Assembly: GCA_900768875.1 (NCBI GenBank)
Contig: CAAGEP010000003.1
Coordinates: 474,433 to 538,432, forward strand
Direction: 5' to 3'
DNA length: 64,000 nucleotides
DNA from: Alphaproteobacteria bacterium
GTDB taxonomy: Bacteria; Pseudomonadota; Alphaproteobacteria; CAAGCB01; CAG-977
Of the stretch, positions 1,040-52,083 are shown one piece after another. Numbering within the stretch: the first letter of the stretch is position 1; every line of letters starts with the position of its first letter. The notes beneath the pieces are model-generated. The model was not told the DNA's origin. It saw only the letters and a list, made by a program, of their open reading frames with translations, and made no database searches. The translations under genes and the position numbers were made by a program.

Positions 1040-3877
1040 GTGCAACTGACAGACCTTTTACGCAAAGCCAACATTCCTTATACGGGCGCGGATTGCGTCA
1101 TTGACGGACTCACCGCCGATTCCAGAAAAGTCGGCAAAAACTTTTTGTTCGCCGCCCTGCCCGGAGTCAAAGCCGACGGAACGGCTTTCCTGCAGGATGC
1201 AAAGGAAGCGGGCGCGGTTGCCGCTTTGGTTCCCGAATCGGCATCGGATTTGCCCGACAACGGCTTGATTTACGTCACGGTCGCCGACGCGCGCAAAGCT
1301 TTGGCTGTCATCGCCGCCGCGTTTTACGGCAAACAGCCCGAAACGGCGGTTTGCGTCACGGGCACGAACGGCAAAACGTCCACGGCGAATTTCTGCCGCC
1401 AAATTTGGGACTTTTTGGGCAAAAAAGGCGCAAGCGTCGGCACTTTGGGCGTTTTGACGGCTGAATTCGCGACATACGGCTCGCTGACCACGCCCGATTC
1501 GGTCACGCTTCATTCCGAACTGAAAGATTTGGCGGACAAAGGCTACAATCATCTGGCGTTCGAAGCGTCTTCGCACGGCATCGAACAGCACCGCATCGAC
1601 GGCATCGCCATTGCCGCGGCGGGCTTTACGAACATCACGCGCGACCATTTGGACTATCACAAAACAATGGAAAACTATCTGGCGGCGAAGCTGGGCTTGT
1701 TCGACCGCCCGCTGTCAACGAAAACCGTTGTTTTGAACGCTGACATTCCCGAATATGACCATATCGCCGACTATTGCCGGCAGCGCGGATTGAAAATCCT
1801 TGATTACGGCAAAAAAGCCAAAGCTTTGCGGCTGATTTCCGCCCGCCACGAAACCAACGGGCAACACTTGGAACTGGAAATTCTGGGCAAACCGTATTCG
1901 ATTCACCTGCCTTTGGCGGGAACGTTCCAAGCCATGAACGCTTTGTGCGCTTTGGGATTGGTTCTGGCGACGGGCGAAGACGCCGATTCTTGCGTCAAAG
2001 CGCTGGAAACGCTGAAAGGCGCGCCGGGACGGCTGGAACACGTTGCCGACCGCAAAAACGGTGCGGCGGTGTATGTCGATTACGCGCACACGCCCGACGC
2101 TTTGGAAACCGTTTTGAACGCTTTGCGCCCGCACACAAAGAACCGCCTGTGCGTCGTGTTCGGCTGCGGCGGCGACCGCGACCCCGGAAAGCGTCCTCAA
2201 ATGGGCGCGATTTGCAATGCTTTGGCGGATGTGGTTTACGTCACGGACGACAACCCCCGTTCCGAAGAACCGGCGATTATCCGCGCCGCGATTTTGCCCG
2301 CCTGCCCCAAAGGCATCAACGTCGGCAACCGCGCTTTGGCAATCGAGGAAGCCGTCGAACAGCTGGAAGCGGGCGATATTCTGGTCGTCGCGGGCAAAGG
2401 ACACGAAACGGGACAGCTGATAAAGGGCGTCATGCATCCTTTTGACGACCGCGAGGAAGTCCGCAAAGCCGTCGCTTTGGCGGATACGCCGCTATGGACG
2501 GCGGAAGCCGTGGCGCACGCGACAAACGGGCGCGCGGGCAGCGACTTTGCGATAACGGGCGTTTCGATTGATTCGCGCACCGTCAAGGCGGGCGATTTGT
2601 ACATCGCTTTAATCGGCGAACGGCTGGACGGACACGCTTTCGCGGCGCAAGCTTTGGAAAAAGGCGCGGCGGGCGTTCTGGTGTCGAAACTGCCCGAAAA
2701 CATTCCTTTGGAACAAGTGATTCTGGTGTCCGACACGACCAAAGCGTTAAACGATTTGGCTGTCGCCGCGCGTTCCAGAACATCGGCGAAAATCATCGGC
2801 GTTACAGGCAGTTCCGGCAAAACCAGCACCAAGGAAATGCTGAAAATCGCGTTGTCTTCGGTCGGACGGACTCACACGACCACGGGCAATCTGAACAACA
2901 CCGTCGGCTTGCCTTTGACGTTGGCGCGCATGCCCGAAAAAACGGATTTCGCCGTGATTGAAATGGGCATCAATCACGCGGGTGAAATGGCGGAACTGAC
3001 GGCGCTGACCCGTCCCGACATCGCCGTTATCACCATGATCGGCACGGCGCACCACGAATTTTTCAAAACCCCCGACGACACCGCCCTTGCCAAAGCCGAA
3101 ATTTTCGAAGGCATGACCGATAAGGGAATCGTGTTTTTGAACGCCGACAACCCGCAATTCGAGCTGTTGCAAAAAGAAGCCAAAAAAGCGGGCATCGAGG
3201 ACATCCGCACGTTCGGCACGCGCGCCGAAAACAACGTCGGGCTGATTTACTGCGCCGAAACGGCTGACGAAACGCTTGTCACCGCCCGCGTCGAACCCGC
3301 GCGCTATTCCTACACTCTGCACATGCCGGGGAAACATCAAGTCATGAACAGCCTTGCGGTCGTGGGTGTTTTGGACGCTTTGAACGTCGACATGGCTTCG
3401 GCTTTGCAAAGTTTGGGGCGGCTGTACCCGACGGCGGGACGCGGCAAGCGTTACGTCCTGCCCTGCGCGGACGGCGAATTCACGCTGATAGACGACGCGT
3501 ACAACGCCAACCCCGAATCCATGGCGGCGGGACTGGAAGTCCTCGGCACGCTTGCCCCCGAAAAGGACGGTCGCCGCATTGCCGTTTTGGGCGATATGCT
3601 GGAACTGGGCGACGAATCCGAAAGCCTGCATCTGGGATTGAAAAAAAGCATTGAAGACAATCACATCGACCTTGTGTTCGCGGCGGGCATCGAAACGGGC
3701 AAGCTGTTTGACAATCTGCCCCCCGAAAATCAAGGCGCAAAAGCCTTGACTTCCGCGGAATTGGCGGATACCGTCGCCCAAGCCGTCCGCCCCGGCGACG
3801 TCGTTTTCGTCAAAGGATCGTTCGGCAGCAAAATGACGCTGATTGTCAAAAAATTGAAAAACTTGAACAACGGATAA
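1040..3877 (+). CDS. murE-murF: In-frame fusion of MurE (UDP-MurNAc-tripeptide synthetase, meso-DAP-adding) and MurF (UDP-MurNAc-pentapeptide synthetase). The protein is 945 aa.
   Basis: A single ORF with no stop. The N-terminal ~480 aa are MurE-like (MQLTDLLRKANIPYTGADCVIDGLTADSRKV, ending GKGHETGQLIKGVMHPFDDREEV). These continue directly into a MurF-like N-terminus (LWTAEAVAHATNGRAGSDFAITGVSIDSRTV) that runs to the stop. Confidence 0.85.
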   Translation: MQLTDLLRKANIPYTGADCVIDGLTADSRKVGKNFLFAALPGVKADGTAFLQDAKEAGAVAALVPESASDLPDNGLIYVTVADARKALAVIAAAFYGKQPETAVCVTGTNGKTSTANFCRQIWDFLGKKGASVGTLGVLTAEFATYGSLTTPDSVTLHSELKDLADKGYNHLAFEASSHGIEQHRIDGIAIAAAGFTNITRDHLDYHKTMENYLAAKLGLFDRPLSTKTVVLNADIPEYDHIADYCRQRGLKILDYGKKAKALRLISARHETNGQHLELEILGKPYSIHLPLAGTFQAMNALCALGLVLATGEDADSCVKALETLKGAPGRLEHVADRKNGAAVYVDYAHTPDALETVLNALRPHTKNRLCVVFGCGGDRDPGKRPQMGAICNALADVVYVTDDNPRSEEPAIIRAAILPACPKGINVGNRALAIEEAVEQLEAGDILVVAGKGHETGQLIKGVMHPFDDREEVRKAVALADTPLWTAEAVAHATNGRAGSDFAITGVSIDSRTVKAGDLYIALIGERLDGHAFAAQALEKGAAGVLVSKLPENIPLEQVILVSDTTKALNDLAVAARSRTSAKIIGVTGSSGKTSTKEMLKIALSSVGRTHTTTGNLNNTVGLPLTLARMPEKTDFAVIEMGINHAGEMAELTALTRPDIAVITMIGTAHHEFFKTPDDTALAKAEIFEGMTDKGIVFLNADNPQFELLQKEAKKAGIEDIRTFGTRAENNVGLIYCAETADETLVTARVEPARYSYTLHMPGKHQVMNSLAVVGVLDALNVDMASALQSLGRLYPTAGRGKRYVLPCADGEFTLIDDAYNANPESMAAGLEVLGTLAPEKDGRRIAVLGDMLELGDESESLHLGLKKSIEDNHIDLVFAAGIETGKLFDNLPPENQGAKALTSAELADTVAQAVRPGDVVFVKGSFGSKMTLIVKKLKNLNNG

Positions 3878-16939: not shown

Positions 16940-17890
16940 TTATCGGGACAGTTTTTTACGGGCGACCGCCGCCTGCAAAGCCGCGCTGTTTGCCGATTTT
17001 TCGGCTGTTTTCGGCGCCGTTCCGTACACATACAAATCGTTGTACGACGTGTCGACTTTCAGCTTCTTGTCCGCGCGGAATTCGTTGACGCTTTTGGCGA
17101 AATCCATCGTGTTTTGATTGATTTGCAAACGCGCGGGTTCGTTCAGCACATCGGGCTTGTCCGCCCAATAGCATTTTCCCGCCGTGTCTTTGCAGAACAT
17201 ATTGACCATTTCCGCCGACGACATTTCACGTTTGAAAAAATCGGCGGGCTTGGCTTCGCGATGCTCTTGCAACGAATTGCTCAAAGCGTCGTTAAAAACA
17301 ACATTTTTTTCGTAAATATCCATCATCGGCTTGTTTTGATACCAGCCGTCAAACGCGCCGCGCATCATTGCGGGCGTGGCGATTCTTTCGTCACCTTTCG
17401 CGGCGGATTCCATGCCTTTGGTGATTTTGGGGCATTTTTCTTCCAATGCTTTCCACGGACCGTCGTTGCCGCTGTTTTTGCGGATTTCCCAAGCCGTCGC
17501 CGCACCGACGGCTTCCGCGTCGGCTTCAATCGCGCGGTTCATTTTCAACGTGTCGCGAATGACCAGTTCGCGGTGGTTGTCGGGAACACCGCGCATGACT
17601 TGCTGAACATGGCGACATTCGTGCGCCAATGTTTCCATCAGCACGTTGTCGTCGTAGCAAGTGCTTAAAAAAATCGTTTTCATTTCTTCGCAAATAAAGC
17701 CCTGCGTTCCCGACATCGCTTGCATCCTCAGCTGATAGCCCGCTTTGGCGGCGTCTTCCAACACGGCGCGCCCCGTGGGAGAATTGTCGGCAATCGTGTT
17801 AATCAAGTGTGCAAAACGATTTTTGCCGTTTTCGGTATACGCCTGAAAAGGCAAATCGATTTTCGGTTCTTGCGCGATATAGTCGGTCAT
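16940..17890 (-). CDS. HExxH-motif (putative gluzincin-type metallopeptidase) family protein, paralog 1. Function unknown.
   Basis: 316 aa. The motif LAHECRHVQQ is followed ~27 aa later by NRAIEADAE. There is no signal peptide. The C-terminal tail is basic and ends ...ARKKLSR. It is a paralog of the three genes at 28.0-32.3 kb. Confidence 0.6.
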   Translation of the reverse strand: MTDYIAQEPKIDLPFQAYTENGKNRFAHLINTIADNSPTGRAVLEDAAKAGYQLRMQAMSGTQGFICEEMKTIFLSTCYDDNVLMETLAHECRHVQQVMRGVPDNHRELVIRDTLKMNRAIEADAEAVGAATAWEIRKNSGNDGPWKALEEKCPKITKGMESAAKGDERIATPAMMRGAFDGWYQNKPMMDIYEKNVVFNDALSNSLQEHREAKPADFFKREMSSAEMVNMFCKDTAGKCYWADKPDVLNEPARLQINQNTMDFAKSVNEFRADKKLKVDTSYNDLYVYGTAPKTAEKSANSAALQAAVARKKLSR

Positions 17891-38224: not shown

Positions 38225-39574
38225 ATGTCACAGGACGCGATTACCGTCGTCGGGGGCGGATTGGCGGGCAGCGAAGCCGCTTGGCAGATAGCGAAAGCGG
38301 GGATTCCCGTTGTTTTAAAGGAAATGCGCCCCGTCAAGCAAACACCCGCGCACCGTACGGACGGGCTGGCGGAACTGGTGTGTTCAAACTCTTTAAGATC
38401 CGACGACGCGATACATAACGCCGTCGGTTTGCTGCACGAAGAAATGCGCCGCTGCGATTCGCTGATTATGCGCGCCGCCGATTTGAACAAAGTTCCCGCG
38501 GGCGGAGCTTTGGCGGTCGACCGCGACGCTTTTTCCAAAACAATCGGGGAAGCTCTCGCCAACCACCCGCTTGTAACAATCAAGCGCGAGGAAATGACCG
38601 AACTGCCCGCCCCCGATTCGGGCAAGTACGTCATTGCGACGGGACCGTTGACTTCGGCAAGTCTGGCGGAACAAATCCAAGCCGTCGCGGGCGGGGATAT
38701 TCTGCATTTTTTCGACGCCATCGCGCCGATTGTCACCGCCGATTCGGTCGATATGACCAAAGCGTGGAAGCAATCCCGCTACGACAAAGGCGACGGCGAC
38801 GACTATATCAACTGTCCCTTGGACGAAGAAGAGTACAACGCCTTTATCGACAACCTGCTGTCGGGGGAAAAGGTCGCGTTCAAAGACTGGGAGAAAAACA
38901 CGCCCTACTTCGAGGGCTGCCTGCCGATTGAAGTCATGGCGGAACGCGGACGGGAAACGCTGGCGTTCGGACCGATGAAGCCTGTCGGCTTGATGAATCC
39001 GCACACGGGCAAGCGTCCTTACGCCGTCGTCCAGCTGAGAAAAGAAAACAAGCAGGGAACTTTGCTGAATCTGGTCGGTTTTCAAACAAAGCTGGTGTAC
39101 GGCGAACAAAAGCGAATCTTTAAAACGATTCCCGGACTGGAAAACGCAGAATTTGTGCGCTTGGGCGGAATTCACCGCAACACGTTCATTCACTCGCCGA
39201 CCGTTTTGGACGGAACTTTACGGCTGAAAGCACGCCCGAACCTGCGCTTTGCAGGACAAGTCACGGGGTGTGAAGGCTACGTCGAAAGCGCGGCGGTCGG
39301 ACTGATGGCGGGATTGTTCGCCGCATGGGAAACGCAGGGCAAGGAAATCGTCCCGCCGCCGATTGAAACGGCGCTGGGCGCAATGCTGAACCACATCACC
39401 GTATCGGCGGAAAGCGATTTGTTCCAGCCGATGAACATCAACTTCGGATTGATGCCGCCCCCGCCCGTCCCCGAAGGCAAACGCAAAATCAAAGGGCTTG
39501 ACCGCAAACGCGCGCAAAGCGAACGGGCGACCGCCGCGCTGACACAATGGCTTGAACAGGCAGGTTTGAAATGA
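38225..39574 (+). CDS. trmFO: Methylenetetrahydrofolate--tRNA-(uracil54-C5)-methyltransferase TrmFO.
   Basis: 449 aa. FAD-binding N-terminus [17 protein letters not shown]. The length and motifs are TrmFO/Gid-like. Confidence 0.85.
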
Positions 39575-40449
39575 CGCACGACATCAAACGCACCAAAGAC
39601 GCCAACGGTGAAAACTTTCCCGTCGGATCTTGCTTAATTCCGGCGAAACTGCGCCCGCACGTCATGGCTTTTTACGACTACGCCCGCACGGCGGACGACG
39701 TTGCGGATTCCGATTTGCCGCGCATGGAAAAGCTCAGACGCCTTGACGCTTTGGAAGCCGTCCTGCGCGGACTGCGCGACGCGGACGAGGACACAAAGTG
39801 CGCCGAAACCCTGCGCAACAGCTTGGAGGAAACGGGTGTTACAAACCAGCACGCTTTGGATTTGCTCAAAGCGTTCCGGCAAGACGCCATCGGCTTCACC
39901 TACAAAACATGGGAAGACGTTATGGCGTACTGCCGCAATTCGGCGGGCAGCGTCGGGCGTTACATGCTGGATTTGCACGGTGAAAACCCGTCGGCGTATT
40001 GGCCTTCGGATGCTTTATGCGCCGCCTTGCAGCTGAACAACCACCTGCAGGATTGCCAAGACGACTATCAGAACCGCCAGCGCGTTTACATCCCGCGCGA
40101 CTGGTTCAGCGACGAAAAAATCAAATACGAAGCTTTAAGCGACAGCATTACCTGCGATGCCTTGCGCCGCGTGTTCGACCGTATGGCGGCGGCAATCGAC
40201 AGCCTGCTGGTCGAAAGCTCGCCTCTGCCCCTTGTCATTCGGCACAGAGGGCTGAGAATGGAAGTCTGCGTCATCTACCGTTTGGCGCAAAGACTGTTGA
40301 AAAAACTGAAAAAACGCGACATCTTGAAACGCAAAGTCGCTTTGGAAAAAACGGACTGGGTGCTGGCGGGAACGCGCGGCATTTTGGACGGACTGACACG
40401 AAAGAAAATCAAATGCCTGAAAAAACAAGACCTCTTGCCGCCGAAGTAG
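39571..40449 (+). CDS. hpnC: Squalene/phytoene-synthase family enzyme HpnC (hydroxysqualene synthase).
   Basis: 292 aa with the ENFPVGS motif, the [10 protein letters not shown] Asp-rich motif and a second Asp-rich motif. First gene of the hpnCDE trio. Confidence 0.75.
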
Positions 40450-41279
40450 AATCCGTCGTTAAACGGTCGGGCAGCTCGTTTTACTGGGCGATGCGGCTGT
40501 TGGGCAAACAAAAGCGCGACGCCATGTTTGCGATTTACGCGTTTTGCCGTGAAATCGACGACATCGCCGACGAACCCGCTTTATTGGAACAAAAGCGGCA
40601 GGCTTTGCAAGTTTGGCGCGACGATTTGGATAAAATCTATGCGGGCGGACAGCCGACGCAAAGAATCGCCGAAGCCTTGATTGAACCCGTTAAAACGTTT
40701 GCCTTGCCCAAAGACGAGTTTATCGCCTTGATTGACGGTATGGAAATGGACATTCCCGACGGCATGCGCGCGCCGACGATGACCGAGCTTCAGCTGTACT
40801 GCCGCCGCGTTGCGGGGGCGGTCGGGATGCTGTCCGTGTGCGTGTTCGGCGACTTTTCCGAAACGGCGCAAAGATTCGCGATTACTTTGGGCGAAGCTTT
40901 GCAGTTGACCAACATCCTGCGCGATATGGACGAAGATATGGAGCTGGGGCGACTGTATATGCCCAAGGAATGTCTGGACAAAGCGGGCATTGCCGTCACC
41001 GACGACACGCATTTAAGCGACATTTTGAACCACCCGAATCTGGGTGTCGCCCGCGCGGCTTTGGCGGAACAAGCCCTGCTCCGCTACGCCGAAGCGGATG
41101 CCGCTTTGGAAAAGCTGAACGCCAAGCAGATGAAACCCGCCGTGATTATGAAAGCCGCCTACCGCAAAATCTTTGACGCGATGCAAAAACGCGGCTGGAG
41201 CGTTGTGCGTCCGCGCATCAAAACACCTAAATCAACGCTGTTGCTGACGGCTTTGCGCATTTGGCTGATTGGCAGGTAA
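40413..41279 (+). CDS. hpnD: Presqualene diphosphate synthase HpnD.
   Basis: The ATG at 40413 gives a 288-aa protein ([30 protein letters not shown]...FCREIDDIAD). The ORF track's 426-aa call from 39999 is an out-of-context extension overlapping hpnC. Confidence 0.75.
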   Translation: MPEKTRPLAAEVESVVKRSGSSFYWAMRLLGKQKRDAMFAIYAFCREIDDIADEPALLEQKRQALQVWRDDLDKIYAGGQPTQRIAEALIEPVKTFALPKDEFIALIDGMEMDIPDGMRAPTMTELQLYCRRVAGAVGMLSVCVFGDFSETAQRFAITLGEALQLTNILRDMDEDMELGRLYMPKECLDKAGIAVTDDTHLSDILNHPNLGVARAALAEQALLRYAEADAALEKLNAKQMKPAVIMKAAYRKIFDAMQKRGWSVVRPRIKTPKSTLLLTALRIWLIGR

Positions 41280-41282
41280 GCC

Positions 41283-42314
41283 ATGACCGTATACGTCATC
41301 GGCGCAGGCATGGCGGGGCTGAGCGCGGCTTTTCACGCCTGCAAAGCGGGACATCACGTCGTTGTTTTGGAATCCTCCAACCACGCGGGCGGACGGTGCT
41401 ATTCCTATTTGGACAAGGAATGGAACCGCCTGTTGGACAACGGCACGCACTTGATGCTGGGGGCGAACACCGCTTTGCTGGAAATCCTGCGCCAATGCCC
41501 GACGGAAACACCGCTAAAGCCGATTGGGTCAAGCTTGACGTTTTACCGCCGCAACCTCGGCTGTTTTACGGTGGATTTGAATCACCCGCTCAAAGCGTTG
41601 CTTCACCTGCCCGAATTGTACAAACTGCTGGCGGAATCCGTGCTGAACACCCCTGCGAAACAAGCGGACAAAGCCCTTTTGTTCAAAACGGCGCGCCTGT
41701 GCTTTTCGGCGCGGGACAAGCAAATCTATCTGGCGAATCCGTCGCTGAAGCAATCCGTCGTCGACCCGATTTACAATTATCTGAAAGACAAGGTCGAATT
41801 CTACTTCAGCCACCCCGCCCGCGGGTTCGAGATTGACCGTATTTTGTCTGATTCCGTCGATTTTCTGATTTCGCCCGATGACAAAATCATTTCGACCGTT
41901 CCGCCGAAAAAAGCCGAATTCGGCACAATCGTCAACATCCATTACAAGACGGACGCGACTTTGCCTGACGGTTTGCCTGTTGTCGGATTGATTGGCATGC
42001 TGCCGCATTGGGTGTTTTGTCAAAACGGAATCGTGTCCGTAACCATCAGCGCGGCGAACGGTTTGAATACCGCAGACATTGCGGAACGGGTTTGGGATGA
42101 ACTTTGCCCTTTGCTTCATTCGCTGGACAGCACGCCGCCGAACCGCGTCATCATCGACCGGCGTGCGACCTTGCTGCAAACGCGCAAGACCAAACGTCCC
42201 TCCGCCGATTCCGAATTCGGATTGATTTTGGCGGGCGACGGCACAAAAACGGGATTGCCCTGCACGATAGAAAGCGCGGTGCGTTCCGGAAAAACGGCGG
42301 CAAACCTGCTCTGA
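41283..42314 (+). CDS. hpnE: FAD-dependent amine-oxidase-like hydroxysqualene dehydroxylase HpnE.
   Basis: 343 aa. GxGxxG motif (VIGAGMAGLSAA...LESSNHAGGR). Follows hpnD. Confidence 0.7.
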   Translation: MTVYVIGAGMAGLSAAFHACKAGHHVVVLESSNHAGGRCYSYLDKEWNRLLDNGTHLMLGANTALLEILRQCPTETPLKPIGSSLTFYRRNLGCFTVDLNHPLKALLHLPELYKLLAESVLNTPAKQADKALLFKTARLCFSARDKQIYLANPSLKQSVVDPIYNYLKDKVEFYFSHPARGFEIDRILSDSVDFLISPDDKIISTVPPKKAEFGTIVNIHYKTDATLPDGLPVVGLIGMLPHWVFCQNGIVSVTISAANGLNTADIAERVWDELCPLLHSLDSTPPNRVIIDRRATLLQTRKTKRPSADSEFGLILAGDGTKTGLPCTIESAVRSGKTAANLL

Positions 42315-42371: not shown

Positions 42372-42980
42372 ATGGCTTTTGAACTGCCTGTTTTACCCTA
42401 TGCCAAAAACGCGCTTGAGCCGTTTATTTCGGAACAAACGCTGGATTTTCATTACGGCAAGCATCATCAAACATACATTGCGAATTTGAACAACTTGATT
42501 CGCAACACGGCTTTGGCGAACAAAACGCTGGAACAAATCGTCCGCGAAACGGCGGACAAGCCCGACAAATCGGCGATTTTCAACAATGCGGCGCAAAGCT
42601 TCAATCACACGTTTTACTGGAACAGCCTGCGCCCGAACGGCGACGGCAGAATCCCCGAAAGCACGTTCAAAGCCGCCGTTTTAAAAACGTTCGGCGGGGC
42701 TGAAAGCTTGAAAGCCGAATTGAAATCGGCCGCTTTGTCCCAATTCGGCAGCGGGTGGGCGTGGCTGATTGCGGACAAAGGCGCGCTGAAAATCACCAAA
42801 ACGGCAAACGCGGACACGCCGGCGGCGCACGGACAAACGCCGCTGCTGACCATTGATGTTTGGGAACACGCGTATTATCTGGATTATCAAAACAAGCGCG
42901 CCGATTACGTCCAAGCGATTATCGACAACCTGCTGAACTGGGATTTTGCGGCATCGAATTTCAGTTCATCCGACAAATGA
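42372..42980 (+). CDS. sodB: Fe/Mn superoxide dismutase.
   Basis: 202 aa with Fe/Mn-SOD signatures (HHxKHH...DVWEHAYY). Confidence 0.85.
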   Translation: MAFELPVLPYAKNALEPFISEQTLDFHYGKHHQTYIANLNNLIRNTALANKTLEQIVRETADKPDKSAIFNNAAQSFNHTFYWNSLRPNGDGRIPESTFKAAVLKTFGGAESLKAELKSAALSQFGSGWAWLIADKGALKITKTANADTPAAHGQTPLLTIDVWEHAYYLDYQNKRADYVQAIIDNLLNWDFAASNFSSSDK

Positions 42981-43572: not shown

Positions 43573-43627
43573 ACCCGAAGTTATGCCATACTGTAGAATC
43601 ATAGTAAATATTTTTCGGAGGCATCTC

Positions 43628-45766
43628 ATGCGAAAATTTATTCTTTGCCTTATCGTTTTGTGTTGGTCGGCGGGGACTTCCGCCGCCGTGCTGAATGATG
43701 CGGACGCGTTTGTCATCGCGCGCAGTGCAAAGCTGGGCGAAATGGAGGACAGCTTTTCCTCCGGCAAACAGGTCACCAAAAAAATCGGCTGCGCTCCGGG
43801 GGAAGCCGATTGCGTCGGTCCGACCTTGTGCAAAACGGATTCCCAGTGCAAAGATGACGAATACTGCTCCGTCATCAAACAATGCACGAAGCTGTGTTCG
43901 GGCGGTGTCAATTCGGATGGGGAAAAATGTTCGGATTACCCGCGCATGCCCGAATGTACGCCCACAAAAAACGGGCATAAATCCTACTGCGCCTGCACGG
44001 ACACGTCTTGCGGCACAGGGTGGAAATGTGCTGAACAAAACGGCATAAAGCAGTGCGTTATCTGTTCCGCGGGCGAAGCATGCGGATGTCCCGATGGCAA
44101 AATGTCCAACGGCAAAGGCGGTTGCGGCGGCTGCAACACGAATGAAGATTGCGCGGGCAACGAAACCTGCGCGGATGCGGGAACGACCGAAGCCGAATGT
44201 AAAACGATAACATGCCCCGACGGAACTTTCCCCAAGGATCACGACTGCGTCAAATGCAGCGCGCTGGATGCGAACTGTCTGGAATGTTCGGAAACGCAAT
44301 GCGTCACGTGTCTGCCCGCCTATGATTTGGTTGACGGGAAATGCGTGCTGAAAACGTGTCCCGACGGCCAGTATCTGGACGAACTTACCGGCACATGCAA
44401 TCCGTGCGGCGCGGGATGCAAAAAATGCACATCGGCCGACGTCTGTACGGAATGTGAAAGCGCTTATGATTTGGAAAACGGCGCATGCAAAACCAAAAAC
44501 TGCGGCGACGGCATGTATTTGAATATGGAAACGGGCGAATGTCTGTCCTGTTCCGCGGAATGTGCGACATGCACGAACGTTGCGAACGACGGTGAAACGT
44601 CGCAGTGCATCACCTGCGCCGACGGTTATCACATGGCGGACGGCGTTTGCGTTGCGAACGGATGCGCGGATATGAAGCTGGCGACCGAATGTGGCGCCAA
44701 TCAAATCAAAACCGACGCGGGTGTGGCAACCAACGGGGAACAGTGCTGGTCCTGCGCAGACCCCGAACCCGAATGTCGCAAGGATACGGATTGCGACAGC
44801 ACGCAGAAATGTTCGCCGGACGGTGAATGTGTGCTGAAAACATGCGCGGAAATGGGGTATGAAAAGACCTGCTCCGCGGGCTATTTGAAAAACGAAGCCG
44901 CGGTCGGTTCGGACGGCATGTGCTACACCTGCCAGAACCCTGCAAAAGACTGCCCCGCGGACAAACCCGCGTGGGACGGCAAAAAATGCGTTCAATGCAC
45001 CGCAAACAGCCATTGCGAAAGCTTTGAATACTGCAAAGATAATCAGTGCGTCCTGCAGGCGGGTAAATGCTATACCAGCAATGATTGCCAGTATAACGAT
45101 TATTGCAAAGACCATTCCTGTGTTCCTGCCTGTGACCCGAATCCGTGTTCCGGTAAAACTCCCAGATGCGCAGTTTACAGCAGCCACACAGCAAAATGCA
45201 CCTGCACTCCAAGCCCCGATTCTTGCGGCGCAGGATACAACTGCGTTAATAGCGGCGGATATAACTGCAAACCGACAACGTGTTCATCTGACGACGATTG
45301 CGATCACGACAAAGCTTGCAAGAACGGGAAATGCGTGGATCCTTGCGATCCGAACCCGTGTTCCGGTAAAACTCCCAGATGCGCAGTTTACAGTAACCAC
45401 ACAGCAAAATGCACCTGCACTCCAAGCCCCGATTCTTGCGGCGCAGGATACAACTGCGTTAATAGCGGCGGATTCAACTGCAAACCGACAACGTGTTCAT
45501 CTGACGACGATTGCGATCAATCCAAAGCTTGCAAGAACGGGAAATGCGTGGATCCTTGCGATCCGAACCCGTGTTCCGGCGAACAGCCACGCTGCGGCAG
45601 CGGCAGTCACCGTGCTAAATGTTATTGCACATCAACCAGTTGTCCGGCCGGATACGTTTGCGACGGTGCGAGCTGCAAAATGAAAACAACGGAAAAATGC
45701 ACGACGGACGACGATTGTTCGGCGGACAAAAAATGCTCCGACGGTTATTGCGTCTACCGCGAATAA
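43628..45766 (+). CDS. Secreted, extremely cysteine-rich repeat protein (furin-like/VSP-like CxxC modules plus EGF/EB-like modules). Eukaryote-like.
   Basis: The ATG at 43628 follows a GGAGG Shine-Dalgarno. Signal peptide MRKFILCLIVLCWSAGTSAA. The 712-aa protein is about 15% Cys. Recurring motifs: C-x2-C...TC-x-xG-YL and DPNPCSGKTPRC. Confidence 0.7.
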   Translation: MRKFILCLIVLCWSAGTSAAVLNDADAFVIARSAKLGEMEDSFSSGKQVTKKIGCAPGEADCVGPTLCKTDSQCKDDEYCSVIKQCTKLCSGGVNSDGEKCSDYPRMPECTPTKNGHKSYCACTDTSCGTGWKCAEQNGIKQCVICSAGEACGCPDGKMSNGKGGCGGCNTNEDCAGNETCADAGTTEAECKTITCPDGTFPKDHDCVKCSALDANCLECSETQCVTCLPAYDLVDGKCVLKTCPDGQYLDELTGTCNPCGAGCKKCTSADVCTECESAYDLENGACKTKNCGDGMYLNMETGECLSCSAECATCTNVANDGETSQCITCADGYHMADGVCVANGCADMKLATECGANQIKTDAGVATNGEQCWSCADPEPECRKDTDCDSTQKCSPDGECVLKTCAEMGYEKTCSAGYLKNEAAVGSDGMCYTCQNPAKDCPADKPAWDGKKCVQCTANSHCESFEYCKDNQCVLQAGKCYTSNDCQYNDYCKDHSCVPACDPNPCSGKTPRCAVYSSHTAKCTCTPSPDSCGAGYNCVNSGGYNCKPTTCSSDDDCDHDKACKNGKCVDPCDPNPCSGKTPRCAVYSNHTAKCTCTPSPDSCGAGYNCVNSGGFNCKPTTCSSDDDCDQSKACKNGKCVDPCDPNPCSGEQPRCGSGSHRAKCYCTSTSCPAGYVCDGASCKMKTTEKCTTDDDCSADKKCSDGYCVYRE
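45134..45580 (+). repeat. 213-bp (71-aa) tandem repeat inside the Cys-rich gene: two near-identical copies plus the start of a third.
   Basis: Copies begin at 45134, 45347 and 45560. Copies 1 and 2 differ at only a handful of nucleotides. Confidence 0.8.
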
Positions 45767-45781
45767 AATCCTACCCTGCGG

Positions 45782-45811
45782 AAAAAGCGGCCTTTCGGCC
45801 GCTTTTTTTTA
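45782..45811 (+). terminator. Rho-independent terminator of the Cys-rich gene.
   Basis: aaagcggcc-tttc-ggccgcttt followed by a T8 run. Confidence 0.7.
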
Positions 45812-45950: not shown

Positions 45951-45987
45951 CAAAAAAAAGCAGGCACCGTGGGGACAGTGCCTGCTT
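45951..45987 (-). terminator. Rho-independent terminator of adhE.
   Basis: Minus-strand hairpin agcaggcac...gtgcctgct followed by a U8 tract. Confidence 0.65.
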
Positions 45988-46010
45988 TGATAGGAAGGAA
46001 TCCGGAGGGA

Positions 46011-48602
46011 TTAAACGATTCCTTCGTAAGCCTTCAAGTAGATTTCCTTGATTTCCTTGAACAAAGGATAACGGGGGTTGGCGCCCGTGCACTGGTCGTC
46101 AAACGCCATTTCCACCAGTTCGTCCAACTTGGCGTTAAAGTCTTCTTCTTTAATGCCGTAATCGCGGATGGACAGAGGAATGTTGACTTCTTTCTTCAAG
46201 TTCGTCAGCGCCTGCAGCAGCAATTCCAACTTTTCGTCGTCGTTTTTGCCGCCCAATTTCAGAGCGTTGGCAATCTGACCGTACTTTTCTTTCGCATTGG
46301 GGTATTTGTACTGAGCGAAAGCCGCCTGTTTGACAGGGCGGTCGCTTGCGTTGAAGCGAATGACCTGACACAGCAGCAACGCATTCGCGATACCGTGCGG
46401 AATGTTGAACGCGGCGCCCAGTTTATGCGCCATCGAATGGCACAATCCCAAGAACGCGTTAGCAAAAGCCATACCCGCCAGCGTGGACGCATAGTGCATC
46501 TTTTCGCGGGCAATCGGGTCGTTTTTGCCGTTTTTGTAGGAACGCGGCAGGTATTTGTAAACCTTTTTCGCGGCTTCCAAAGCGTTCGAGTTCGTGAAGT
46601 TCGTCGCCATAATGGAAACGTAAGCTTCAATCGCGTGAACAATCGCGTCATAACCCGAAGCGGCGCACAGTCCCGGCGGCATCGTGTCGACCAAGTTCGC
46701 GTCGACAATCGCCATGGACGGGGTCAGCGCATAGTCCGCCAACGGATATTTGATGTGGGTTTTGTCGTCGGTAATAACCGCGAACGGCGTTACTTCGGAA
46801 CCCGTACCGGACGTCGTCGGAATGGCAACCATGGACGCTTTTGCACCCAAAGCGGGCAAATCGCAAATTCTCTTGCGGATATCCATAAAGCGCATGGCGA
46901 CGTCTTCGAACTTGATTTCGGGTTGTTCGTACATCAGCCACATGACTTTGCACGCGTCAATCGGCGAACCGCCGCCTAGCGCGATAAAGCAATCGGGTTC
47001 GTACGTTTTGACCATCATCATCGCGTCGTTAATCGTCGACAGGGTGGGGTCGGGCTTCACGTCAAAGAAAATCTGGTAATCCGTTCCGATTTCGTCCAAA
47101 ACGCGCGTGATGTTGTTCACGGCACCCGAATTGAACAGGAAGCGGTCGGTTACGATAAAGGCGCGTTTTTTGCCTTTCAGTTCGCGCAAAGCGTAGTCCA
47201 TCGACCCGCGTTTGAAATAAATCTTGGGCGGTACTTTATACCACAGCATATTTTCTCTCCTTTCGGCGACGGTTTTGATGTTCAACAGGTGCTTCGGACC
47301 AACGTTTTCGCTGGTGGCGTTGCCGCCCCACGAACCGCAGCCGATGGTCAGCGTCGGGTTCAGTTTGAAGTTGAACAAATCGCCGATGGCGCCCTGCGCC
47401 GCGGGGGAGTTGATTAAAATGCGGCCGGTATGGATTTTGTTGCCGAACGCGTTGATTCTGTCGGTCTTTCTTTCGTCCGTGTACAGAACGGAAGTATGAC
47501 CCGCGCCGCCGTGATCGACCAGCGTGTAGGCTTTTTCCATCGCGTCTTCAAAGTCTTTGGCGCGGTACAGAGCCAAAACGGGCGACAGTTTTTCGTGCGC
47601 GAACGGTTCTGCGGTCGTCGTGTCTTCGACTTCGCCAATCAGAACCTTTGTTTCTTCGGGAACTTCGATTCCCGCCATTTCCGCGATTTTATAAGCGGGC
47701 TGACCGACAATCGCGGGGTTTACGCCGCGCGGGGTCAACAGAATGGCGGCGACTTTTTCGCGTTCCTGTTCATTCAGAATGTATGCGCCGCGGAATTCAA
47801 ATTCCTTGCGGACGGCTTCGTACACTTCGTCAACCGCGATAACGGATTGTTCGGACGCGCAAATCATGCCGTTGTCGAACGTTTTGCTCAGCAGAATCGA
47901 GGAAACAGCCATTTGAATGTCGGCAGTTTCGTCAATGACCGCGGGCGTATTGCCGGGACCGACGCCCAAAGCGGGCTTGCCCGAAGAATAAGCGGCTTTG
48001 ACCATGCCGGGGCCGCCCGTCGCCAGAATGATGTCAACCTTGGGGTGTTTCATCAGCATATCGGACAATTCGATGGTCGGTTCGTCAATCCAGCCGATGA
48101 TTCCTTCCGGAGCGCCGGCTTTGACCGCGGCTTCCAAGCACAGCTTGGCGGCGGCGATGGTGCTTTTCTTGGCGCGGGGGTGCGGCGAAAAGACAATGGC
48201 GTTGCGCGTTTTCAGCGCAATCAGAGTTTTGAAAATGGCTGTGGAAGTCGGGTTCGTCGTCGGAACGATGCCTGCGATAACGCCGATGGGTTCGGCGATT
48301 TTTTTGATACCGCCGGCTTTGTCTTCTTCGATGACGCCGCAGGTTTTCATATTTCTGTATTTGTTATAGATGTATTCGGACGCGAAGTGGTTTTTAATCA
48401 CCTTGTCTTCCATAACGCCCATTCCCGTTTCTTCGGCAGCCATCTGCGCCAAAGGAATACGGGCTTTGTTAGCCGCCAACGCGACTTCACGGAAAATCTT
48501 GTCCACCTGTTCCTGCGTGTACGAAGCGTATTTCGCCTGTGCTTCGTGCGCTTTGGTAATGACGGCCTCAAGATCCTCTGCGGTTCTGACTTCGTTTTCC
48601 AT
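46011..48602 (-). CDS. adhE: Bifunctional acetaldehyde-CoA/alcohol dehydrogenase AdhE.
   Basis: 863 aa. N-terminal ALDH domain and C-terminal Fe-ADH domain. The N-terminus is typical of AdhE. Confidence 0.9.
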   Translation of the reverse strand: MENEVRTAEDLEAVITKAHEAQAKYASYTQEQVDKIFREVALAANKARIPLAQMAAEETGMGVMEDKVIKNHFASEYIYNKYRNMKTCGVIEEDKAGGIKKIAEPIGVIAGIVPTTNPTSTAIFKTLIALKTRNAIVFSPHPRAKKSTIAAAKLCLEAAVKAGAPEGIIGWIDEPTIELSDMLMKHPKVDIILATGGPGMVKAAYSSGKPALGVGPGNTPAVIDETADIQMAVSSILLSKTFDNGMICASEQSVIAVDEVYEAVRKEFEFRGAYILNEQEREKVAAILLTPRGVNPAIVGQPAYKIAEMAGIEVPEETKVLIGEVEDTTTAEPFAHEKLSPVLALYRAKDFEDAMEKAYTLVDHGGAGHTSVLYTDERKTDRINAFGNKIHTGRILINSPAAQGAIGDLFNFKLNPTLTIGCGSWGGNATSENVGPKHLLNIKTVAERRENMLWYKVPPKIYFKRGSMDYALRELKGKKRAFIVTDRFLFNSGAVNNITRVLDEIGTDYQIFFDVKPDPTLSTINDAMMMVKTYEPDCFIALGGGSPIDACKVMWLMYEQPEIKFEDVAMRFMDIRKRICDLPALGAKASMVAIPTTSGTGSEVTPFAVITDDKTHIKYPLADYALTPSMAIVDANLVDTMPPGLCAASGYDAIVHAIEAYVSIMATNFTNSNALEAAKKVYKYLPRSYKNGKNDPIAREKMHYASTLAGMAFANAFLGLCHSMAHKLGAAFNIPHGIANALLLCQVIRFNASDRPVKQAAFAQYKYPNAKEKYGQIANALKLGGKNDDEKLELLLQALTNLKKEVNIPLSIRDYGIKEEDFNAKLDELVEMAFDDQCTGANPRYPLFKEIKEIYLKAYEGIV

Positions 48603-48634
48603 TGTTCCCTCTGATAGTAAACTGTTTGGGTTAA

Positions 48635-48652
48635 TCGTGATTTATTTCACAG
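48635..48652. promoter_or_regulatory. Putative Rex operator (TGTGA-N6-TCACA type) in the adhE/rex divergent intergenic region.
   Basis: tcGTGAtttattTCACag, starting 33 bp upstream of the adhE start. Confidence 0.5.
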
Positions 48653-48781
48653 TTTTCTATATAATCGAATCGCCCCCAAAAATCAAGCACTTTTCTAAAA
48701 ACCGTCCGAAAAATCTTTCGGTCTGGATTTTTGTGAAAAACCCTTTTATGATTGAGTCGAAAAAATTCAAGGAATTATGTT

Positions 48782-49396
48782 ATGAATCAGCCTCTTTCCG
48801 AAAAAGTGTACGCCCGTCTGACGCAATATCACAGCTTGCTGATTGAATATATCGAAGACGGCATCCCCACCATTTCCAGCCCTCAAATCGCCGTTCGACT
48901 GGGTGTGGACGATTCGCAGGTGCGCAAGGATTTCAAGCTGCTGAACAATGAAGGGCGCGGACGCGTCGGATACGACGTGCAGGCGCTCAAAGAATCGATT
49001 GAAGACACGCTCGGCTTTCAAATCGTCAAAAACGCGGTCATCATCGGCGCGGGGCATCTGGGCATGGCTTTGGCGAACTATTCCGCGTTCAGCGACTACG
49101 GACTGAACATTCTGGCATTATTCGACAGCGCGCCCGAAAAGGTCGGCACGGCGGTCAACGGCAAACCGATTTACCCTGTTTCCCGCCTGTCCGAAATGGC
49201 GCGCGAATCCCAAGCCGACATCGCCATTCTGACCGTTCCGCGCGCGTTCGCGCAAAAAGTCGCCGACGATTTGGTCAAAGCCGACTTTAAATATATCTGG
49301 AACTTCACGCCCGCGATTTTGAAAGTCCCCGACGGCATCAAAGTCCGCAACGAAAACCTTGTCGCGGGCTTTTTGCAGTTCGCGAATCAGGACTGA
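48782..49396 (+). CDS. rex: Redox-sensing transcriptional repressor Rex.
   Basis: 204 aa from the ATG at 48782. N-terminal winged helix and Rossmann fold (IIGAGHLGMALANY). Divergent from adhE. Confidence 0.8.
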   Translation: MNQPLSEKVYARLTQYHSLLIEYIEDGIPTISSPQIAVRLGVDDSQVRKDFKLLNNEGRGRVGYDVQALKESIEDTLGFQIVKNAVIIGAGHLGMALANYSAFSDYGLNILALFDSAPEKVGTAVNGKPIYPVSRLSEMARESQADIAILTVPRAFAQKVADDLVKADFKYIWNFTPAILKVPDGIKVRNENLVAGFLQFANQD

Positions 49397-50705: not shown

Positions 50706-51328
50706 TGCTGAAAATTTTAATTGCTGACGATCACGAGCTTTTTTTGGACGGCTTGCGGCTGGTTTTGTCGGATTTGGACAGCGAAATCACCGTTGACACC
50801 GCGTCCAATCATCACGAATTGCAGCAAAAAGCGGACGGGAAAACCGCTTACGATTTGATTTTGACGGATTTGGCAATGCCCGGAATGCCGTGGCACGAAT
50901 CCCTTCGCCGATTGAAAGAAAACAATCCCGACACGCCGATTGTCGTCCTGTCCGCCGTAACCGAACCCGAAAACGTCCTGCAAGCCGTCGATATCGGCGC
51001 ATCGGGCTTTATTCCGAAAACGTCGTCCAACAAAATCATTCTCAGCGCTCTGCATCTGATTTTGGCGGGCGGGTTATACCTGCCGTCGGAATTGCTGAGC
51101 CTGCAAAACAAGCCCGAAGACACCGCCGTCAAAGGCATCTTGACCCCGCGGCAGCTGGATGTTTTGCGCTTGATGGGACAAGGAAAGCCGAATAAAATCA
51201 TCGCCCGCGAATTGGATTTGTCCGAAGGCACCGTCAAACTGCACGTCACCGCGATTTTAAAGGCGCTGAACGTCATCAACCGCACGGGCGCGGTGATTGC
51301 GGGCAGAAATTTGGGATTGATAGACTGA
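50706..51328 (+). CDS. NarL/FixJ-family response regulator (REC plus LuxR HTH).
   Basis: 207 aa from the ATG at 50706 (MLKILIADDHELFLDGLR...). The C-terminal HTH is LSEGTVKLHVTAILKAL. The ORF-track call from 49940 is an antisense/upstream extension. Confidence 0.8.
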
Positions 51329-52083
51329 TGACCGATACCAAAAAAGATTTTATGACATCATCGCCGAAGCCCGTTCCGCCTCCGCGTATTGATTTCGTGG
51401 CGGAAGATTCCGACGCCGTTTTGCCGCCGTATCTTGAATCGGTTTACAAACGCCGTTATTTTTCGCCGCAATTCATCCGTTTTTTCAACAGCACCGTTAT
51501 GACGGCCGTATCGAACTGTTTTATGCAAAAACGGTTAATTCGCTATGTAACGGATGAAATCCATGCGGGACAGAATGTTTTGCAGTTCGGAACGGCGGAC
51601 GGCAGTTTGCAGCATGCCGTTGCCGAAAAAATGAACGGCAGCGGCGTCTATCATATCGAAGACATCTCAAAACCGCAAATCGACGCCTTGCTGCCGTCAA
51701 TTTCGCCATGGCTGAACGTGCGTCTGAACGTGCGCGACTTTTCAAACCCGACGGACCGGAAATATGATGCCGCCGTTTTATTTTTCACGCTTCATGAATT
51801 ACCCGACGCCCGCAAGGAAATCGTTTTAAAGCGAGCTTTCGACGCGCTGACTTCCCACGGAAAAATCATTGCGGTCGATTACGCCATGCCTTGCGCCTAT
51901 CATCCGATAAAGCACCCTTTGCGGCTGTTCAACCGTTTATTCGAGCCGTTCGCGGAATCGCTTTGGTACAAGGACATCAAGAGCTTCGCCCCCGCAAATT
52001 TGCGGGAATCCAAGAATATCATCTGGGCGAAATCGACAACGTTCGGCGGACTGTACCAGTGCGTCATCGCGCAGAAACGGTAA
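51328..52083 (+). CDS. Class-I methyltransferase-fold protein with a degenerate SAM motif I. Function unknown (RquA-like?).
   Basis: 251 aa. Motif I reads VLQFGTADGS instead of VLDxGCGTG. The acidic beta-2 end (YHIEDIS) and motif II (DAAVLFFTLHELPD) are retained. Confidence 0.5.
   Translation: MTDTKKDFMTSSPKPVPPPRIDFVAEDSDAVLPPYLESVYKRRYFSPQFIRFFNSTVMTAVSNCFMQKRLIRYVTDEIHAGQNVLQFGTADGSLQHAVAEKMNGSGVYHIEDISKPQIDALLPSISPWLNVRLNVRDFSNPTDRKYDAAVLFFTLHELPDARKEIVLKRAFDALTSHGKIIAVDYAMPCAYHPIKHPLRLFNRLFEPFAESLWYKDIKSFAPANLRESKNIIWAKSTTFGGLYQCVIAQKR

Follow-up and report, generated by a model that had tools for sequence, protein, structure and literature searches.

Introduction

Control of adhE by the redox-sensing repressor Rex is a textbook circuit in Firmicutes, and reviews have called Rex a Gram-positive regulator. 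In Staphylococcus aureus, the Rex site of adhE lies at −39 from the start codon, with the transcription start site (TSS) at −36; NAD+ promotes binding of the repressor, and NADH counteracts it (Pagels et al., 2010; PMC2883068). Ethanol yield is under Rex control in Thermoanaerobacterium saccharolyticum (PMC5886521), as are hydrogenases in Caldicellulosiruptor bescii (PMC6391272). Here we analyse a pair of divergently transcribed adhE and rex genes, together with a predicted Rex operator in the adhE promoter, at positions 45951-49396 of a 64-kb stretch of DNA (hereafter the window) from a metagenome-assembled genome (MAG) of an alphaproteobacterium.

Like its counterpart in S. aureus, the window adhE carries an 18-bp repeat of the TTGTGAA-W4-TTCACAA type within or just after its promoter, in this case 33 nt from the ATG and at about +1. 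It differs in that the host is a diderm alphaproteobacterium, the repeat departs from the consensus at three positions, rex is adjacent and divergent, and the site is a predicted one. The locus also resembles the systems of T. saccharolyticum and C. bescii, where Rex governs adhE and ethanol formation along with [FeFe]-hydrogenase operons, in that rex in relatives of the window species is transcribed away from an [FeFe]-hydrogenase operon that also holds 2Fe-2S and SpoIIE-phosphatase genes. Those organisms, however, are thermophilic Firmicutes with experimentally defined regulons, whereas the window's 64 kb holds one predicted target.

This gut alphaproteobacterial lineage has been proposed as a donor of anaerobic genes (RquA and [FeFe]-hydrogenase) to eukaryotes. 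The uncultured human-gut 'MAG Azo/Aceto' group of Rhodospirillales-like alphaproteobacteria (Azospirillum sp. CAG:239, Acetobacter sp. CAG:977 and others) is reported to possess an anaerobic toolkit of [FeFe]-hydrogenase, its maturases and RquA (PMC4967309, PMC5953543), and the window likewise contains an RquA-like gene, 2 kb from rex. The hydrogenase paper on these alphaproteobacteria makes no mention of Rex or AdhE.

A predicted Rex operator in the adhE promoter

The elements on which the analysis turns are listed here in window coordinates.

46011..48602, minus strand: adhE, bifunctional acetaldehyde-CoA/alcohol dehydrogenase, open reading frame (ORF) of 863 aa
48782 (ATG)..49396, plus strand: rex, NADH/NAD+ redox-sensing transcriptional repressor, 204 aa
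48635..48652, no strand: predicted Rex operator, 18-bp inverted repeat TCGTGATTTATTTCACAG, reading CTGTGAAATAAATCACGA on the adhE strand
48681..48686, minus strand: predicted −35 of adhE, TTGATT
48658..48663, minus strand: predicted −10 of adhE, TATATA, 17 nt downstream of the −35
48650-48633, minus strand: box as it stands in the promoter alignment, GTGAAAtAAATCACGATT, 6 nt beyond the −10
48691..48700, minus strand: conserved A-rich element tTAGAAAAgt, just upstream of the −35

An earlier note on this DNA had described a Rex-type operator 33 bp upstream of adhE, and both the location and the character of this element were borne out. The box (cGTGAtttattTCACa / CGTGATTTATTTCACA) lies at exactly 48636..48651, with 33 nt (48603..48635) separating it from the adhE ATG at 48602; it stands alone in the window, is conserved among orthologous promoters and occupies a repressor position. 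Compared with TTGTGAA-N4-TTCACAA, the 18-bp operator matches at 11 of 14 positions, deviating by a C at position 2, a T at position 7 and a G at position 18. Across the 64 kb, the box is the sole match to TGTGAANNNNTTCACA with two or fewer mismatches, and matches with three mismatches occur at chance level (23 found, 25.6 expected). Using a position weight matrix (PWM) derived exclusively from sites that precede adhE or hydrogenase genes in species other than that of the window, we obtained a score of 23.2 bits for the box. The runner-up in the window, which is intragenic, scores 10.4 bits, and the maxima from 200 shuffles that served as background have a mean of 10.8 (standard deviation [SD] 2.7) and a largest value of 20.9. 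The shorter pattern GTGA-N6-TCAC is present four times in the window against an expectation of 0.5, the other three copies being intragenic, one of them inside adhE, and low in PWM score.

Conservation of the operator was assessed in an alignment of adhE promoters from eight loci of four alphaproteobacterial species (the window and the conspecific loci L001-L004, with L006, L025 and L033). The −35 (T115, T116, G117, T119 and T120 invariant), the −10 (five of six positions invariant: T138, A139, A141, T142 and A143) and the operator (columns 151-168, all invariant) form three invariant islands in otherwise diverged DNA. The same arrangement, with conserved −35 and −10 elements followed by a box starting at about +1, is found in five other alphaproteobacterial MAG species, where the box is located 52-75 nt upstream of adhE and scores 21.7-22.6 bits (L005, L006, L009, L025 and L033); in L005 and L009 the same box stands at 70-71 nt. 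The 14-mer GTGAAATAAATCAC also precedes adhE in Gastranaerophilales and an Endomicrobium MAG.

As the box begins 6 nt after the −10, it covers the predicted TSS of adhE, which we place at about 48650-48652, and a box at about +1 occupies the position expected of a repressor that blocks initiation. The promoter itself has close counterparts outside the Alphaproteobacteria. In Gastranaerophilales, adhE promoters carry CTTGca or CTTGaa where the window has its −35, and the order GTAnAAAA, CTTG −35, TATAT −10, GTGAAATAAATCAC and GAT is shared by both Gastranaerophilales clades (A and B), by locus L035 and by the Endomicrobium MAG. The combination GTAnAAAA...CTTG recurs in alphaproteobacterial and Gastranaerophilales adhE promoters, and the A-rich element at 48691-48700 may be read as a proximal UP element or as a sequence bound by another regulator, perhaps an activator. 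In Gastranaerophilales clade B, the GTAnAAAA element forms a palindrome, GTGTA-N5-TACAC, centred near −43.

Some sister species have a more elaborate upstream region. In L006, L009 and L025, a further strong box of the Rex type (such as TCGTGATATTATTCACGA, at 25.5 bits) occurs about 190-220 nt upstream of adhE, which is about 120-150 nt upstream of the promoter-proximal box, and the 5′ leader is longer, at about 70 nt, in some cases with a G+C-rich hairpin. The window species has one box and a distance of 34 nt. An Rfam scan of the window at the gathering threshold returned tRNA-Met only, with no leader RNA or small RNA near adhE.

AdhE, Rex and the boundaries of their transcription units

Genes were identified by matches to NCBIfam profiles and by alignment to solved structures. 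The 863-aa AdhE of the earlier note is a complete ORF whose product matches NF010378 with 1404.5 bits (cutoff 951) over residues 3-861 of 863. Its two halves are matched separately by an EutE-type acetaldehyde-CoA dehydrogenase (residues 10-447) and by iron-containing alcohol dehydrogenase (Fe-ADH) families (residues 461-859), and the solved AdhE chains 8uhw, 6ahc and 6tqh align with it end to end (over residues 7-861). As read from the alignment, the catalytic-cysteine motif GMICASEQS and the Fe-ADH motifs GGGSPIDACK and CHSMAHKLG are intact, and FDNGMICASEQS, GGGSPIDACK, VHAIEAY and CHSMAHKLG are identical or nearly identical to those of 8uhw. The window protein is thus predicted to have the two-domain fusion, in one polypeptide of about 860-900 aa, and the catalytic, metal-binding and NAD-binding motifs that define the family. 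Two candidate elements within adhE genes were discarded. A perfect palindrome in the window gene (CGTGATGTTGTTCACG, 47106-47121) is a chance product of V-N-N-I-T codons, which is not kept beyond the species and differs even in L003; a recurrent, moderate PWM match at +2110 of many adhE genes stems from the conserved peptide AREKMH and does not occur in the window.

The divergent rex gene was also confirmed, on the plus strand at 48782..49396 against the minus-strand adhE, the two genes being 180 nt apart. Its product matches NF003994 with 219.6 bits (cutoff 130) over residues 6-198, its homologues carry PF06971 and PF02629, and the start at ATG 48782 agrees with 204-aa homologues at 100% coverage. 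Alignment over its full length with the solved structures 3wg9, 5zz5, 3ikt, 1xcb and 2vt2 places the recognition helix SQVRKD opposite SQIRQD/SQIRKD, the VGYDV of the wing GRGRVGYDV opposite YGYNV/VGYNV, the Rossmann motif GAGHLG opposite GAGNLG/GAGNIG, and LFDS, with the acidic residue expected after that motif, opposite IFDI/IFDS. By these alignments, the predicted protein has the domain architecture of the Rex family, an N-terminal winged helix for DNA binding joined to a C-terminal Rossmann domain for NAD(H) in about 200-220 aa, as well as its signature motifs.

Two further elements lie in the region between the genes.

48724..48752, plus strand: predicted rex promoter, TGGATT, 17 nt, TATGAT, inferred from relatives
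48706..48721, both strands: short palindrome CCGAAAAATCTTTCGG, a weak bidirectional hairpin between the two promoters with a 6-bp stem containing three G-C pairs

The rex promoter assignment draws on the sequence CTGGATTTTTT, followed 17-18 nt on by a TAnnnT hexamer, which is conserved upstream of rex in L081, L085, L086 and L089. In the window, the PWM finds no strong Rex box in or beside the predicted rex promoter, and autoregulation of rex is therefore not supported for the predicted promoter; relatives have a degenerate TAGTGAAAAAAATCTCAA directly before the −35 of rex. On the plus strand, a perfect TATAAT at 48660-48665 overlaps the adhE −10 and could in principle belong to a second rex promoter overlapped by the box, a reading that nothing supports. 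The palindrome at 48706..48721 is kept only within the species (L001-L004).

Terminators were evaluated by comparing the minimum free energy of each structure with that of 200 shuffles.

45957..45988, minus strand: intrinsic terminator of adhE, 14-bp stem with seven G-C pairs, 4-nt loop and U8 tail
about 45780..45809, plus strand: intrinsic terminator of the convergent gene for a cysteine-rich repeat protein, GCGGCC-UUUC-GGCCGC plus A/U pairs and a U-run

The adhE terminator has a minimum free energy of −25.6 kcal/mol (z = −7.09), and none of the 200 shuffles was as stable. The second structure (−19.2 kcal/mol, z = −4.35) is found about 150 nt beyond it, on the opposite strand. According to the earlier note, adhE is situated between two strong terminators; the one at its 3′ end stands, but both strong structures are on the same side of the gene, and there is no terminator-like structure after rex (z = −0.6 and −1.0), the stop codon of which is 3 nt from that of a convergent rlmD-like gene. 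The structure at 45780..45809, outside the adhE unit, is probably the second terminator that the note had in mind. With its own promoter and terminator, adhE is predicted to be a clean monocistronic unit.

Evolutionary history of adhE and rex

The earlier note had raised the possibility that adhE and rex form a horizontally acquired module and had proposed examining base composition and phylogeny. The G+C content at third codon positions (GC3) is 0.674 for adhE and 0.693 for rex, compared with a mean of 0.652 (SD 0.044) for 44 window genes, and codon-usage deviation is 0.131 for both genes, compared with 0.136 (SD 0.031). Both genes are therefore typical of the window and give no signal of recent transfer. 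By identity, the nearest relatives of AdhE outside its own clade are non-alphaproteobacterial; in a neighbour-joining (NJ) tree, Rex clusters with alphaproteobacterial Rex proteins.

In the AdhE tree, the window protein falls within a monophyletic clade of 12 gut and rumen alphaproteobacterial sequences (bootstrap 100). Within this clade the GC3 of adhE tracks host G+C content, from 0.195 to 0.746, which argues for long residence. The nearest AdhE proteins outside the clade are those of Gastranaerophilales (Melainabacteria), at 75-77% identity; those of three other alphaproteobacterial AdhE clades are more distant (65-69%). The Gastranaerophilales adhE loci also have nearly the same promoter-operator cassette (CTTG, TATAT, GTGAAATAAATCAC-GAT), and in their clade B rex lies immediately downstream of adhE. 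They differ from the window in belonging to another phylum, in the GC3 of adhE (0.21-0.39 versus 0.67), in having rex co-directional with adhE or absent nearby, and in a Rex that is 52-58% identical. An old cross-phylum exchange of adhE is likely, and the promoter cassette shared across phyla suggests that the regulatory region travelled along with the gene. The sister link between the alphaproteobacterial clade and Gastranaerophilales clade A is weakly resolved, with an NJ bootstrap value of 59, and the transfer may have run in either direction.

The history of rex appears to be different. In the Rex tree, the window protein groups with alphaproteobacterial Rex proteins, its identity to the Rex encoded beside Gastranaerophilales adhE being the 52-58% given above. 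The neighbourhood rex-rlmD-response regulator-rquA-GDPD-ribF-lspA is conserved even in species with 63-68% Rex identity, and in these relatives rex is divergent from an [FeFe]-hydrogenase gene, or from a hydrogenase operon of five genes, rather than from adhE. A GTGA-N6-TCAC box precedes the hydrogenase operon in two of four relative species groups (present in L085 and L090, absent in L081 and L086). By contrast, adhE stands beside rex in the window's species alone (L001-L004); the sister species that carry the adhE cassette have no rex within 3 kb of adhE. On these comparisons, rex belongs to the resident genes of this gut alphaproteobacterial family and normally has an [FeFe]-hydrogenase as its partner. 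Since rex is resident and adhE adjoins it only in this species, the pair would not have been acquired as a module.

The hydrogenase-rex pair may likewise have a cross-lineage history. In the NJ tree, unlabelled 206-aa Rex proteins and a Gastranaerophilales sequence surround the alphaproteobacterial Rex clade, and the low-G+C locus L091 (0.318) has the same divergent hydrogenase-rex layout, with a Rex 77-78% identical to the alphaproteobacterial proteins. The hydrogenase operon divergent from rex lies at 878-5781 in L085, 1-4815 in L089 and 1-4753 in L091. Its first gene, for a 2Fe-2S thioredoxin-like protein, is followed by genes for a 570-580-aa [FeFe]-hydrogenase-like protein bearing an additional Fe-S domain, for a SpoIIE-type phosphatase, for another 2Fe-2S protein and, last, for a 485-aa [FeFe]-hydrogenase; the layout recalls the sensory or regulatory hydrogenase (hfs-type) operons of Thermoanaerobacterium.

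A model for adhE regulation and its alternatives

The observations support an account in which adhE is a Rex-repressed monocistronic unit, rex is a resident gene, and an adhE cassette shared with Gastranaerophilales moved beside rex only in this species. We hold this account, including the view that the box is a genuine and well-conserved Rex operator, to be likely. The analysis itself establishes both gene identities, the conserved operator that is unique in the window, the conserved promoter geometry and the terminator; Rex binding, the response to NADH and the direction of flux through AdhE are carried over from what is known of the Rex family. In this model, adhE would be driven by a sigma-70-type promoter (−35 at 48686-48681, −10 at 48663-48658) and its transcription ended at 45988-45957. 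At low NADH/NAD+, a Rex dimer on the operator (48652-48635) would block initiation of adhE transcription. Upon NADH build-up, for example through limitation of oxygen or electron acceptors in the gut, NADH-bound Rex would leave the DNA; AdhE would then be made, and two NADH would be reoxidised per acetyl-CoA reduced to ethanol.

Several points weigh against this account. The operator has its three mismatches among the 14 specified positions of the Firmicute consensus. Further Rex boxes, which the earlier note had proposed to look for, were not found above background in the 64 kb by PWM or consensus scans, and therefore a regulon could not be shown in this genome; none of the other classic Rex targets is among the window proteins scanned. 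The box is absent in the alphaproteobacterial relatives L007 and L008 and in the three other alphaproteobacterial AdhE clades, and L039 has rex beside adhE yet no box matching at least 11 of 14 positions upstream of adhE. In L045, rex is also beside adhE, which is cut off at the end of the locus. A promoter scan did not call the adhE promoter, because its rule needs a T at −10 position 6 and this −10 ends in A, so that the assignment rests on the cross-species alignment. Finally, CRP-type regulators share the half-sites and spacing of TGTGA-N6-TCACA, and the sequence alone is thus no proof that Rex is the binder.

The last point opens the alternative that the inverted repeat is a CRP/FNR-family site and that the adjacency of rex is incidental. 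Besides the identity of the core pattern to the CRP consensus, the A-rich or GTAnAAAA element upstream of the adhE −35 could belong to an activator, and in L086 an FNR-like TTGAT-N4-TTCAA precedes the hydrogenase gene. A box at about +1, directly after the −10, is nevertheless in a repressor position, unlike the −41.5 and −61.5 of CRP/FNR activators; its flanks agree with the longer form of the Rex motif, (T)TGTGAA/(T)TCACAA, around a spacer of A and T only, and no cNMP-binding (cyclic nucleotide-binding) regulator is among the window proteins scanned. Such boxes, moreover, occur in cis with rex in three layouts, namely divergent adhE, divergent hydrogenase and the adhE-rex operon of Gastranaerophilales clade B, in which the two genes are on the same strand with the box upstream. 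We therefore regard a CRP/FNR site as unlikely. That the box is a chance palindrome without a regulatory role is a notion we find barely credible: the four copies of GTGA-N6-TCAC in the window, including the one inside adhE, do indicate that short palindromes arise by chance, but only 0.5 would be expected, the other three are intragenic with low PWM scores, and the copy inside adhE differs already in L003. In the promoter, the copy does not vary between species although the non-coding DNA around it has diverged, and it is this conservation that excludes chance. The arrival of adhE and rex together, as a recently acquired mobile fermentative module, is very improbable. It could draw on the greater closeness of AdhE to Gastranaerophilales than to several alphaproteobacterial AdhE proteins outside its own clade, on the proximity of adhE and rex in some Gastranaerophilales, and on the left flank of adhE, which is not syntenic with relatives. 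Set against this are the native GC3 and codon usage of both genes, the rex neighbourhood that persists at 63-68% Rex identity, the separation of the window Rex from Rex proteins linked to Gastranaerophilales adhE, and the monophyletic AdhE clade with its host-tracking GC3; no mobile-element genes were seen beside the pair. Repression of adhE by a resident Rex remains the reading that we favour.

Host and genomic surroundings

Four independent assemblies contain loci (L001-L004) whose AdhE is 99-100% identical to that of the window; all of them have the rex-adhE arrangement, which therefore does not stem from an assembly chimera. Three of the four are labelled Alphaproteobacteria bacterium (UBA2903, UBA6411 and HGM16787). 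The fourth, L002 (CAVCSV010000028.1), comes from a 'Limosilactobacillus gorillae' bin in which the alphaproteobacterial rlmD-rex-adhE block is present at 91-99% protein identity, and the contig is probably a binning contaminant in the public record. The MAGs most closely related to it were recovered from human gut, rumen and faeces, which agrees, together with the host label, with the gut-associated anaerobic lifestyle of an alphaproteobacterium that the earlier note had suggested. Its remark that AdhE is unusual for alphaproteobacteria holds for cultured ones; many gut and rumen alphaproteobacterial MAGs carry AdhE, in at least four clades. The alphaproteobacterial marker GcrA is encoded on a relative's locus, and the window represents core chromosome, with a dcw cluster, ftsZ, lpxC, recA, flhB/fliR, trmFO, hpnCDE, sodB, pgi, mutL and lepA.

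Close to rex, the stop codon of a LuxR/NarL-type response regulator gene (50717-51328) overlaps the start of the RquA-like methyltransferase gene (51328-52083; rhodoquinone biosynthesis), whose product scores 168.9 bits against NF038261, just below the cutoff of 175. This pair stands beside rex-rlmD in most relatives examined, though not in L086 or L088, and from its conservation near rex we read rex, its anaerobic target (adhE or hydrogenase) and rquA as a small conserved 'low-oxygen' neighbourhood. On the other side of adhE, the convergent gene at 43583-45766 encodes a 727-aa cysteine-rich protein with a hydrophobic N-terminus and near-identical tandem repeats of about 80 aa (...DPNPCSGKTPRCAVYS.HTAKCTCTPSPDSCGAGYNCVNSGG.NCKPTTCSSDDDCD..KACKNGKCV...); it has no Pfam or NCBIfam match and no homologue in the related loci.

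Farther away, a single 945-aa ORF at the head of the dcw cluster (1040-3877) contains the Mur-ligase N, M and C domains twice and appears to be a murE-murF fusion. Four paralogues of a DUF6782 putative metallopeptidase are present (16940-17890, 28035-30116, 30129-31157 and 31303-32340), three of them in tandem. At 39571-42314, two squalene/phytoene-synthase-family genes are followed by an HpnE-like amine oxidase gene, as in hpnC/hpnD/hpnE-type squalene synthesis, and adjoin a gene for Fe-superoxide dismutase (42372-42980). From this group one would predict that the organism, a gut anaerobe or microaerophile, makes hopanoid or squalene lipids and defends itself against oxygen.

Significance

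The circuit is a known one and brings no new mechanism; what is new is its predicted occurrence in an uncultured gut alphaproteobacterial lineage. Its added value lies in the evolutionary detail, namely a promoter-operator-gene cassette found across phyla and a rex whose partner has been swapped from hydrogenase to adhE. The operator also provides a concrete cis element with which the Rex regulon of this lineage may be predicted from complete genomes. As a tentative generalization, to which we would give somewhat less than an even chance, adhE may travel from one gut phylum to another (Gastranaerophilales/Melainabacteria, gut Alphaproteobacteria) as a self-contained cassette, in which the gene is accompanied by a UP-like element, its promoter and the Rex operator and would function on reaching any Rex-bearing recipient; in the window species it would have replaced the ancestral [FeFe]-hydrogenase as the divergent partner of rex, with Rex acting as the master switch of the anaerobic toolkit of this lineage (RquA, [FeFe]-hydrogenase). 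If this is true, the redox valve of the family would have been rewired in this species from H2 to ethanol. The findings lend support to the view that, in these gut alphaproteobacteria, fermentation and NADH balance work as they do in gut anaerobes of other phyla.

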